Origin: a virus
IMG/VR virus record: IMGVR_UViG_3300002461_000235
Location: 1-58,169 of that record
Strand: one strand, 5' to 3'
Length of the DNA stretch: 58,169 nucleotides
In this document: piece by piece, positions 6,755 to 8,983 of the stretch
Layout: every line of letters begins with the position of its first letter
How positions within the stretch are numbered: position 1 is the first letter of the stretch
Made by a program: the position numbers and the translations under genes
The notes under the pieces: generated by a model
Databases searched by the model: none
Told to the model about the DNA's origin: nothing
What the model saw: the letters and a program-made list of their open reading frames with translations, nothing else

Positions 6755-6800
6755 GTTATCTGATTTAAACTATTCGCATTGGTGCGAAAACTTGGGAGCT

Positions 6801-7424
6801 ATGACTATGTTAAAGAAATTTGTACTTTCTATTGCTGCTTTATTGTTTACTGTTGGTGCTTCTTCTGCTCAGTATACTACTCAGGCTGGTGGTACTGGTG
6901 CTGGATTTCCTACTGTAAATGTACCGGCTGATACGCAGTGCTTACGTTATGGTAATAATAACGTTTGTAATGCTTATGCTCCTGCTGGCCCTACAGCCAT
7001 CACTGGCTATGAAACTGTCATTGGTGACACTCATGCGGCTGCTGGAGCTGTGCCTCAGACTGTGAATATTCCACTTACTGCTATTGGTGGCGGTAAGCTC
7101 ACTGTATCAGCTCCTCTCACTGGCGCTACCATTACCCTTGATGCTCAGACACGCCAGTTGATTGTTAATCCGGCTGGTACTATTGCAGCTTTAACTGTTA
7201 ATATGCCTGCTGCATCTGCTACTATGGTTGATGGTTCTCGTATTGGTATTTGCGGTACTCAGATTGTAACTGCGCTTACTCACGGCGCTGGCACTGGCAA
7301 TACTTTTGGTACTGCTGCTGTTACTGCTTTAGCTGTACCTCCTGCCACTGGTGCTGGTACTTGCTATGAGTGGACCTATAGCAAGACTAGTGCTTCTGCT
7401 GGTGTTTGGTATCGCACTCAGTAA
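6801..7424 (+). CDS. secreted T/A/G-rich beta protein (Sec signal peptide)
   Basis: GGGAG RBS. N-terminus MTMLKKFVLSIAALLFTVGASSA/Q has n-h-c regions of a signal peptide. Confidence 0.6.
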   Translation: MTMLKKFVLSIAALLFTVGASSAQYTTQAGGTGAGFPTVNVPADTQCLRYGNNNVCNAYAPAGPTAITGYETVIGDTHAAAGAVPQTVNIPLTAIGGGKLTVSAPLTGATITLDAQTRQLIVNPAGTIAALTVNMPAASATMVDGSRIGICGTQIVTALTHGAGTGNTFGTAAVTALAVPPATGAGTCYEWTYSKTSASAGVWYRTQ

Positions 7425-7457
7425 TCCTTTAACCCCTCAAACATAAGGATTATTGAT

Positions 7458-7862
7458 ATGCCTTTACCAGCTTTTGCTGATTTAGCTCAGCGATTTATTA
7501 GTAGCCGTCAATTACTTCCGGGTAGTTGGGCTAATGCTATTACAGATAGTCTGACTTCTTATCAGTCTGTTACTGCTACTCCTGCCGGTACTCAGGCTAC
7601 GTCACTTTTATTAAACGCAGCTAATGTAAGTATTGCTGTAGTCGCTACTGCTGCTGATGGTGTCAAACTTCCTCCTGCTAAAGCAGGCATGGAGATTAGT
7701 ATTGTCAACAATGATGCTGCTGACGCTGCTCAAATCTTTGCCAGTGGTTCTGATACTATTAATGCTACTGCTGGTAATGTTGGTGTTTCATTGGCCGCTG
7801 GTGCAGCGATCATCTTACGTTGCCTTAGAGATGGTAATTGGCGTAGGTTTGTATCTGCATAA
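7458..7862 (+). CDS. hypothetical beta-rich protein related to the C-terminus of 6801-7424; no signal peptide
   Basis: ORF-track ORF. Shares the pattern V.LP.A..G..I.I...L..G...C...W.R. Confidence 0.55.
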   Translation: MPLPAFADLAQRFISSRQLLPGSWANAITDSLTSYQSVTATPAGTQATSLLLNAANVSIAVVATAADGVKLPPAKAGMEISIVNNDAADAAQIFASGSDTINATAGNVGVSLAAGAAIILRCLRDGNWRRFVSA

Positions 7863-7876
7863 TTTCTCTGAAACTA

Positions 7877-7908
7877 GCCAGCTCCCAAAAGGGGCTGGCA
7901 CCTTTTTT
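7877..7908 (+). terminator. rho-independent terminator inside the TerS-TerL interval
   Basis: GCCAGCTCC / GGGGCTGGC stem, CAAAA loop, TTTTTT run. Confidence 0.75.
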
Positions 7909-7958
7909 AGTCCTTCTATTTTAAATTTTATTACTCACGATTGGGGCTTGGTCATAAG

Positions 7959-8333
7959 ATGAAAAAGATTTTAATTCTTTTAGCTCTGTTGCTTTTGCCT
8001 CAATTTGCTGAAGCTCAGACTACAGTAGTTACTAAGCCATTACAGTTAACAGCAGTAGATAATCAAAGCTCTACTATAGCTGTTACAAATACATTTCAGC
8101 AAGTTTTTGCGGCTTCCACTTCCATTTCTGGTAGAGTAGCTTGTACTATTCAAAATACAGGCACTAATCCTATGTATGTTTTCTTTGGTACTACGGCTGC
8201 TGCTACTATTGCTAAATCAGTTAAACTTATCTCAGGTCAAGCTGTTACTTGTGACTATAACAATACTGTTTTAAAGCTTGCTGTTCAAATCACTGGTACA
8301 GCTACGGAGGCTTATTATGCGTCACAGCAGTAA
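7959..8333 (+). CDS. secreted beta-rich protein (Sec signal peptide)
   Basis: N-terminus MKKILILLALLLLPQFAEA/Q. Confidence 0.6.
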   Translation: MKKILILLALLLLPQFAEAQTTVVTKPLQLTAVDNQSSTIAVTNTFQQVFAASTSISGRVACTIQNTGTNPMYVFFGTTAAATIAKSVKLISGQAVTCDYNNTVLKLAVQITGTATEAYYASQQ

Positions 8334-8982
8334 GATTTTAAGTTTAATTTTTAGCTTATTTGTCAGCTCAGCTAATGCTCAAGGTATAACGCCTAGCGGT
8401 GGAGGCTCTCCTACTGGAGTTGCAGGAGGTAGTCTTGGAGGAACTTATCCAAATCCTACCGTAACAACAAATGCTAATCTTACTGGTGATGTTACTTCAG
8501 TAGGAAATGCTACTACATATAACAATGTAGTGCCAGCAAATAAAGGTGGTGCCGCTGCTGGTAATTTACCAGCTACCGTTAGTGGTGCTATACCTTGTAC
8601 TACATGTGTTGGTTTTCAGGTAACTGCAAGCGTTGCTGTTGTTTCCATTATTACAGCAACTCCTACCAACTTAACTAGCATTACTCTTCCGGCTGGAAAT
8701 TGGTCAATTAGTGCAGGTTATTCTTGTTCTGGTACTGGAGCTACTACATTAACTGACATTTGGTTATCTATTAATACAGTTATTAATACTAATGTTAATA
8801 CTCGCGGTCAAGTTTCTCGTTATAGAGGAGCTACGCTAACTGATCCAGCTTGGTCACAGAGCATTGGTCCTTTATCTGTTTATAATTCTAGTTCACAGCA
8901 ATATTTCCTTAATGCTCAGGCTACTATAGGAGCATCAACTTTAACTTGTGATGGTATCATAACAGGTACTCGCATTAATTAA
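8317..8982 (+). CDS. secreted tail-fibre-like protein (Sec signal peptide)
   Basis: GGAGG RBS. N-terminus MRHSSKILSLIFSLFVSSANA/Q, followed by the fibre-type repeat GGSLGGTYPNPTV...LTGDVTSVGNATT. Confidence 0.6.
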   Translation: MRHSSKILSLIFSLFVSSANAQGITPSGGGSPTGVAGGSLGGTYPNPTVTTNANLTGDVTSVGNATTYNNVVPANKGGAAAGNLPATVSGAIPCTTCVGFQVTASVAVVSIITATPTNLTSITLPAGNWSISAGYSCSGTGATTLTDIWLSINTVINTNVNTRGQVSRYRGATLTDPAWSQSIGPLSVYNSSSQQYFLNAQATIGASTLTCDGIITGTRIN

Positions 8983-8983
8983 A

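Follow-up and report, generated by a model that had tools for sequence, protein, structure and literature searches.

Predicted Sec leaders on fibre- and spike-like proteins encoded in a hypervariable cassette between the terminase genes of an uncultured phage clade

Why would a tailed phage encode proteins with export signals between the two subunits of its terminase? The question is raised by a viral sequence of 58,169 nucleotides, IMG/VR record IMGVR_UViG_3300002461_000235 (the window, by which we mean the whole stretch of DNA that was analysed). Here four open reading frames (ORFs), which we call A, B, C and D, lie on the same strand in a 2.2-kb stretch between the genes for the small (TerS) and the large (TerL) terminase subunit, and A, C and D begin with leaders typical of the general secretory (Sec) pathway. 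The particles of tailed phages are assumed to be assembled wholly in the cytoplasm, and their receptor-binding proteins are expected to be made without signal peptides; leaders on fibre-like proteins and, as described below, on the tailspike of the same phage are therefore unexpected. We find that a conserved yet hypervariable cassette recurs across a clade, with the order terS, A, usually B plus a hairpin, a variable set of genes, and terL, and that the 2.2-kb stretch is its form in this phage. As a tentative answer, we suggest that A, C, D and the tailspike may be receptor-binding modules that mature outside the cytoplasm and join the particle at lysis.

The leaders were called with a crude von Heijne-type rule that looks for a charged n-region, an uncharged hydrophobic core and small residues at positions -3 and -1; as a criterion for cleavage by signal peptidase I (SPI) this was applied as a basic n-region, an uncharged hydrophobic core of 7-15 residues, and small residues at -3 and -1. 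The rule flags A, C and D, and each leader ends in a small-x-small motif before a Gln. Among the other ~110 ORFs of the window it flags only the tailspike, one lipoprotein and three doubtful cases that are small or internal, and the enrichment of leaders in A-D relative to the rest of the window is significant (Fisher p ~1e-3). Conservation across the protein families is stronger evidence for signal peptides than the scan itself. A leader-type N-terminus is present in 115 of 120 A-family proteins, in 133/150 C-family representatives and in none of 120 B-family proteins, and an alignment of 48 diverse A proteins shows conservation of 90% or more for a basic residue and for Ala at both -3 and -1, with a variable hydrophobic core. 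The three Sec-type leaders reported in the original prediction, whose sequences are as quoted there, and the absence of a leader from the fourth ORF, B, are thereby borne out. An AlphaFold2 (AF2) model of A places a helix at residues 3-21 and a disordered linker at residues 22-33 ahead of an all-beta body.

The predicted mature proteins have features in common. All three window leaders expose Gln at the +1 position, as do 89/115 (77%) of the leaders in family A, 117/133 (88%) in family C and 20/23 (87%) among D-like proteins; over all proteins encoded in the terS-terL gap of relatives the value is ~60%. Mature A contains exactly four Cys in 120/120 family members and mature C contains two in 96 of 106, B proteins mostly have one, and conserved, even Cys counts are confined to the leader-bearing families. 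Within the window, Cys makes up 1.6-1.9% of A, C, D and the tailspike compared with 0-1% of most other virion proteins. The lipobox L-[AS]-[GA]-C is absent from A, C and D. Because A-D have neither a lipobox nor a coiled coil, they were ruled out as spanins. Neither Pfam nor NCBIfam detected Por_Secre_tail or CHU_C, the C-terminal sorting domains of type IX secretion cargo, in A-D, in ten large gap proteins of relatives or in the tailspike, which rules out such cargo. We regard A, C and D as predicted Sec/SPI-type pre-proteins, and it is from these N-termini that we infer their translocation and cleavage.

The tailspike gene encodes such a leader as well. Its product starts with the 24-residue leader MNNSIFKTFLLSLCIIANTNLAYA, which ends in AYA, followed by QTASILPP. 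Besides a Phage Tail Collar domain, the protein has a C-terminal part rich in Cys and Gly, and 16 Cys are present in the mature portion. Of 17 readable orthologues, 15 or more retain the leader; that of L131 has none and opens straight into the conserved docking domain. Residues 13-84 of the mature tailspike align with residues 12-86 of the chains (126-129 residues) of PDB entry 9vyg, named 'Tail spike protein' (E value 2.5e-4). Since this alignment is in register after cleavage, removal of the leader would recreate a canonical particle-binding N-terminus. The gene closes a tail module with a P22-like order, namely coat, adaptor (21189-22160), closure protein (22161-23624), a 143-residue 'short tail fiber'-like protein, ejection proteins (one annotated and two putative) and tailspike. 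To the best of our knowledge, known tailspikes carry no signal peptide, and in the literature we found no description of leader-bearing tailspikes or of a cassette such as the one reported here. A survey of the target proteins of phage diversity-generating retroelements counts the lack of signal peptides in favour of a phage origin of those proteins (PMC6199706). Taken together with A, C and D, the tailspike suggests that the window phage may route its host-recognition proteins through Sec genome-wide.

One could argue that the leaders are not working export signals at all but are retained, serving trimerisation or membrane-proximal assembly, and that the proteins bearing them are ordinary virion proteins assembled in the cytoplasm. 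The location of the genes in structural and packaging modules, the fibre-like folds described below and the existence of leaderless members (the tailspike orthologue mentioned above and the D-like proteins P0244, P0268 and P0270) are in line with this idea, but it is difficult to reconcile with leaders that, over hundreds of proteins, have a full n-h-c layout, keep small residues at -3 and -1 and place a host-type Gln at +1. It also leaves aside that even, conserved Cys counts occur only in the leader-bearing families and that removal of the leader restores the canonical tailspike N-terminus, and we consider it improbable.

We next turn to the setting of the four genes. A search of viral contigs with TerL returned 32 related loci at 48-95% identity, 11 of which include both terminase genes (TerL identity 95% down to 51%). 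In 11/11 of these relatives A lies directly 3' of TerS, and in eight B is found after A or further downstream. The gap between TerS and TerL measures 1.6 to 6.5 kb, and the two genes are adjacent in none of the 11, so that the premise of the original prediction, that TerS and TerL normally adjoin, does not apply in this clade. Further loci that are cut at their upstream edge hold >8 kb of such genes, and the same layout is seen across an 8.4-kb gap in L033, a contig from a metagenome-assembled genome (MAG). By the rule-based scan, 63 of the 85 gap ORFs that are rich in T/A/G/V/S and at least 100 residues long carry leaders, with sizes of up to 1279 residues; those without mostly encode B-family proteins or are truncated by the end of a contig. 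Gene content 3' of B differs even among close relatives. In the closest one, L001, whose TerL is 95% identical, C and D are absent and a single unrelated leader protein of 136 residues takes their place. A and B themselves diverge ~3-5 times faster than TerS, TerL and portal (77% identity; ratio of nonsynonymous to synonymous substitution rates 0.27-0.28 vs 0.06-0.13). The role of the cassette may be interaction with the host envelope, an assignment that we offer with reserve.

In a subclade, a multi-pass membrane protein of the Wzy_C family (O-antigen ligase/polymerase) is encoded between the A and B genes. It was recognised by Pfam in L032 (3639-4754, 1.1e-9) and L018 (1651-2721, 1.9e-5) and by BLAST clustering in L023 (56-1015) and L030 (10-1059). 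Such a neighbour could modify a surface glycan or glycosylate the exported proteins; O-glycosylation of A in particular was dropped as speculative, the gene being absent from the window.

The C-D half of the window's cassette has a history of its own. The best full-length relative of D (40% identity, 2e-24) is encoded on L134, a 45-kb contig with 62% G+C content (JGI 3300065428) from an unrelated podovirus-like phage that has a T7-type portal domain (PF12236). There, three consecutive leader proteins are encoded at 6949-8687, inside the structural block: a C-family gene stands right before the D relative and overlaps it by 17 nucleotides, just as C overlaps D in the window, and a third leader protein is encoded ahead of the D relative as well. 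C and D thus travel as a linked pair of genes between phages that are unrelated, and leader-bearing fibre-like genes in structural modules are not confined to one lineage.

These data bear on the proposal that the whole four-gene block is a moron, recently acquired with its own terminator and unrelated to core functions; the original prediction had called the block a moron-like insertion. An internal terminator is indeed present, and the C-D pair is missing from the closest relative and found in an unrelated phage. The terminator, however, follows B rather than the block and is itself conserved; the G+C content of the A-D stretch (0.38-0.45, compared with ~0.40 for the genome) reveals no compositional break; and D ends one nucleotide before the ATG of TerL. 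Since A follows TerS in every one of the 11 relatives and B is present in eight, these two genes are not a one-off insertion. For A and B the moron reading is contradicted, and it could still hold for no more than C-D, taken as an exchangeable module; for the block as a whole we consider it very improbable. Coordinates are collected in Table 1.

Table 1. Features of the cassette and the tailspike gene in the window; leaders are predicted, with a slash marking the putative cleavage site
Feature	Coordinates	Strand	Description
Terminator-like hairpin	6037-6077	+	12 bp plus T-run; just 5' of terS
TerS (small terminase subunit)	6101-6754	+	phrog_5334, 3.9e-13; left border of cassette, conserved in 11 relatives
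Gene A	6801-7424	+	207-residue pre-protein; signal peptide 6801-6869 (GASSA/Q), conserved N-domain, C-terminal beta-sandwich knob
Gene B	7458-7862	+	134 residues, no signal peptide; helix then beta-sandwich; conserved partner of A
Intrinsic terminator/attenuator hairpin plus T-run	7877-7908	+	directly 3' of B
Gene C	7959-8333	+	124 residues; signal peptide 7959-8015 (FAEA/Q); 2 conserved Cys; first gene of C-D pair
Gene D	8317-8982	+	221 residues; signal peptide 8317-8379 (SANA/Q); tail-fibre repeats, C-terminal knob, 4 Cys
TerL (large terminase subunit)	8984-10441	+	PF04466, 1.9e-30; right border of cassette
Tailspike/tail-fibre gene	28664-31384	+	906 residues; signal peptide 28664-28735 (LAYA/Q); Collar domain, 2.6e-12

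The strong internal terminator was confirmed. The element after B (7877-7899 plus the T-run) has a 9-bp stem with seven GC pairs, a predicted free energy of -18 kcal/mol and a z-score of -3.15. It is kept in 10 of 12 loci with differing stem sequences, and compensatory changes are seen at eight of the nine predicted pairs. In several loci the hairpin takes up almost all of a 38-60-nucleotide spacer; downstream genes, including terL, must therefore be transcribed through it, and most likely the hairpin sets relative transcript levels. The second hairpin, just 5' of terS, suggests that terS, A and B form a separately bounded transcription unit. Codon bias toward T-ending codons is the strongest in the genome in A, B and C (fraction of T at third positions 0.69-0.72, vs 0.65 in the capsid gene), and codon use in A and B that resembles that of the major capsid gene suggests that they are core, highly expressed late genes. 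We note that a very hydrophobic 101-residue ORF overlies B in another frame (7657-7962, + strand) and has counterparts in L001 and L004; we take it to be a probable side effect of T-rich codon use in B, not a gene. The gene-plus-hairpin layout also prompted us to consider a pilus-like operon, which was ruled out, as the short cassettes contain no chaperone or usher.

What kind of proteins does the cassette encode? A-D have no significant match in Pfam, PHROG, NCBIfam or PADLOC, the last of these including models of known anti-phage defence and exclusion proteins, and BLAST against all window ORFs revealed no paralogues. A belongs to a family of at least 711 database proteins (8000 candidates scored), none of them named and none with a Pfam domain; the longest contig among the matches listed is 62 kb. 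Family B comprises 352 proteins and family C 405 representative clusters, both without annotation. D has two long-range relatives, at 96% and 67% query coverage, and an N-terminal repeat motif that is widespread; 23 of its 33 hits have a leader. Some B-family proteins are tandem duplications of 238-264 residues (P0122, P0125, P0145, P0152 and P0180, on other metagenomic contigs), and leader-bearing proteins with a B-like N-terminal motif occur in L016, L018, L025 and L030. Profiles of A, B and C matched nothing in a sequence search of the PDB, and tblastn against cultured phages gave no match for A or C and weak matches only for B.

Structure prediction with Foldseek comparison, as the original prediction had proposed, was run on A and B and points to the beta-sandwich domains of tailspikes and fibres. 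The AF2 model of B (predicted local distance difference test score, pLDDT, 90.8) has matches in the PDB to the tailspike depolymerase gp83 of Acinetobacter phage Solidus (24qj, 4.4e-4, root-mean-square deviation (rmsd) 1.9), a baseplate cup chain of Klebsiella phage KP1 (9f4b_FA, 5.6e-4) and the capsid spike of Pseudomonas phage Pa223 (9ny6_C, 3.5e-3). The model of A (pLDDT 84) has no significant match in the PDB, the best being the same chain 9f4b_FA at an E value of 0.42. Against BFVD it returns 53 matches at E <= 1e-3 (best 6e-8), with the best superpositions on a C1q-domain protein (rmsd 2.0 over 109 columns) and an EPS-depolymerase of a Klebsiella phage (rmsd 3.0 over 122 columns); further matches are, by name, collagen-repeat, tail-fibre and pectate-lyase proteins. 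On these models we assign A and B a predicted fibre- or spike-type beta-sandwich fold. The shared C-terminal pattern that had been noted for A and B fares less clearly. A profile comparison with hhalign aligns A 91-206 with B 38-131 at an E value of 0.0029 and a probability of 10.7%, and this match, together with the common nearness of both models to 9f4b_FA, gives modest support to their kinship, although the 9f4b_FA match of A is non-significant.

The fibre-like character of A is also seen in its architecture. The N-domain, with the invariant PAGP..G.ET....T, is conserved and the C-terminus is variable, and in some loci the N-domain is fused to long C-terminal parts (L031, 468 residues; L028, 489 residues; L017, 1279 residues); fibres are usually laid out in this way, constant at the N-terminal end and variable distally. 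In D, the N-terminal motif GG(S/D)L(G/S)GTYPNPTV...NANLTGDVTSVGNATT is common to proteins with PF03906 (T7 tail fibre) or PF13884 (Peptidase_S74), many with leaders and some without, and the C-terminal part shows a weak match to a protein of Bradyrhizobium phage BDU-MI-1 that is annotated as tail fibre (E value 1e-3). The fibre-type repeats claimed for D are supported by both results, and the fibre- or spike-like nature of the cassette proteins holds for A through BFVD, for B through the PDB and for D through its motifs.

The leaders also speak to the host. In Bacteroidetes, signal peptides follow a Q-rule: Gln at +1 averages 71%, and 332 of 334 species lie above 48%, while in the related phyla compared (Chlamydiae, Spirochaetes, most Chlorobi and cyanobacteria) the value is mostly <20% (PMC5837995). 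The +1 Gln frequencies given above match this rule, and on this sequence signature the host is probably a member of the Bacteroidota. Shine-Dalgarno use is weak (loose 4-mers precede 16 of 34 genes, and the sequence before start codons is A-rich), and the Bacteroidota promoter motif TAnnTTTG is mildly enriched (88 vs 66 +/- 8), both of which are consistent with such a host and not decisive. Scans of genome contigs with TerL gave no prophage or reliable host link, yielding distant relatives (<=44% identity) in assorted MAGs, mostly of Proteobacteria, and one 61% fragment on a 2.8-kb contig of a Patescibacteria MAG.

How might these observations fit together? A, C, D and the tailspike would be exported by Sec to the periplasm, cleaved before Gln and disulfide-bonded, B would remain in the cytoplasm, and the hairpin after B would raise the level of terS-A-B transcripts above that of transcripts from the genes downstream. 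The exported proteins would be accessory receptor-binding modules. Their maturation would be extracytoplasmic, and they would not come into contact with the DNA-filled particle until holin/endolysin lesions merge the compartments at lysis. In P22, addition of the tailspike is the final, spontaneous assembly step, which makes attachment at lysis feasible in a P22-like layout. Joining of the particle is favoured because the docking domain of the tailspike is in register after cleavage, because the N-domain of A is conserved while the distal parts attached to it vary, and because the genes are late and coupled to terL. A more sweeping version, that the receptor-binding proteins of this clade and of the L134 lineage, tailspike included, are Sec-exported, oxidatively folded and N-terminally capped in the periplasm and are added to the particle at lysis only, seems to us doubtful; if true, the virion would turn adsorption-competent outside the cytoplasm, a route that has not been described for tailed phages.

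Several points weigh against particle attachment at lysis. The 'short tail fiber'-like protein of the tail module (23950-24381, phrog_12032, 8e-42) is leaderless, so the particle may not need exported proteins. No docking partner for A, C and D was identified, attachment at lysis would need to be fast, and we found no precedent in the literature for a tailed phage that attaches periplasm-matured fibres or for exported tail fibres or tailspikes. Export, cleavage and disulfide formation of the exported set are themselves predictions from sequence. The relation of A to B is weak by sequence, and C is not detectably related to B and has no fibre or spike match. Lastly, the Wzy_C gene found between A and B in some relatives suits a role in modifying the surface no less well than one in virion assembly.

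The exported proteins may instead never join the virion, acting in the periplasm, on the surface of the infected cell or free after lysis; we take this seriously without thinking it probable. They might then bind, mask or cleave a receptor glycan or protein and so exclude superinfection, spare progeny from debris or strip neighbouring cells, functions to which we give the same guarded standing. Leaders that send proteins away from the cytoplasmic assembly site, folds and motifs of receptor-binding type, the Wzy_C genes interleaved in L018, L032, L023 and L030, the presence of a leaderless adhesin-like tail protein, and the Q-rule leader proteins of Porphyromonas gingivalis phages, which have been proposed to modify the host envelope (PMC10367356), would all suit such a role. 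A free decoy, however, needs neither a docking-type N-domain in register with that of a virion-bound spike, as in the tailspike, nor a conserved N-domain under variable C-termini, as in A. Known exclusion genes are typically early, whereas these genes belong to the late packaging operon, in translational coupling with terL; moreover, they have no PADLOC match and, unlike Llp or Cor, no lipobox. With a leader of this kind on the tailspike itself, a role tied to the virion has become a rival to receptor masking or exclusion, which the original prediction had proposed, and we retain attachment at lysis as our tentative reading.

Other features of the window are recorded here briefly. The gene next 3' of TerL encodes the portal (phrog_156, 3e-91). 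No DNA-level relative of the window was present in the phage collection searched, whose closest proteins reach at most 40% identity for TerL and at most 48% for the capsid protein (Pseudomonas phage PAE2). A lysis block at 31394-33144 comprises an endolysin (phrog_181, 3.6e-37), a 147-residue ORF, a 142-residue lipoprotein and a 72-residue ORF; the lipoprotein (32501-32929), which has an LAGC lipobox and adjoins the endolysin region, is a spanin candidate. Selfish elements lie at 18394-18930, 20440-20898 and 41774-42337: GIY-YIG-type homing endonucleases are found between the scaffold and capsid genes and adjoining the gene for the single-stranded DNA-binding protein, and an Endonuclease_7 gene lies 3' of the capsid gene. 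In two relatives GIY-YIG genes occur immediately 5' of terL (L009, 6282-6863; L016, 7312-8010), and the TerL ORFs of L014, L025 and L026 are 806-831 residues long, which suggests inteins. Genes for tRNA-Leu(taa) and tRNA-Thr(tgt) adjoin each other within 4261-4422; a third ARAGORN call, tRNA-Met at 46848-46923, lies inside the primase ORF and is probably false.

Our results highlight a large uncultured clade with Sec leaders predicted on a whole set of fibre- and spike-like proteins plus a canonical tailspike. If these proteins do join the particle, an extracytoplasmic final assembly step would be new in tailed-phage morphogenesis; if they stay off it, they would constitute a large family of exported, receptor-binding decoys or enzymes that diversifies rapidly. 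In addition, the Q-rule signature offers a clue to host phylum, drawn from sequence alone, for uncultured phages, and three sizeable unannotated protein families (A, B and C) are defined here, with confident models for A and B.

Comparison with known systems places these proteins more precisely. The tailspike is the nearest to a familiar counterpart: its N-domain is homologous to that of the P22-type tailspike 9vyg (a further entry of this type is 7eeq, 'Tailspike head-binding domain'), and the gene order mirrors that of P22, yet the window protein carries a cleavable-type Sec leader ahead of its particle-binding domain. Envelope-targeted proteins encoded between terminase genes are found in T7, where the spanin genes 18.5 and 18.7 sit between terS (gene 18) and terL (gene 19), so that adjacency of the two terminase genes is not universal. 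A-D, unlike the T7 spanins, lack a lipobox, have no coiled coil with an N-terminal anchor and are not arranged as an embedded gene pair, and the window encodes a separate lipoprotein by the endolysin. Llp of T5 and Cor are small receptor-blocking lipoproteins processed by signal peptidase II and unrelated to fibre folds; they resemble the present set in being phage-encoded envelope proteins that could block re-adsorption, whereas A, C and D have SPI-type leaders, are encoded in a late operon and belong with fibre and spike folds. The beta-sandwich domains of fibres, spikes and baseplates (24qj, 9f4b_FA, 9ny6_C and the BFVD entries) have a fold like those predicted for B and for the C-terminal half of A, but here the domains are free-standing proteins of 100-200 residues, that of A behind a signal peptide, with no detectable sequence-family membership. 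Closest in leader type are the P. gingivalis phages, which likewise encode SPI-type leaders that expose Gln according to the Bacteroidetes Q-rule, on uncharacterised proteins that have been proposed as host-envelope modifiers (PMC10367356). The likeness is one of leader type: in those temperate phages the leader genes are few and scattered (PMC10367356), whereas here they form an ordered, clade-wide cassette in the packaging operon and are joined by the tailspike. The components, fibre-type folds and SPI leaders, are of known kinds, and it is their combination and clade-wide organisation that is new.

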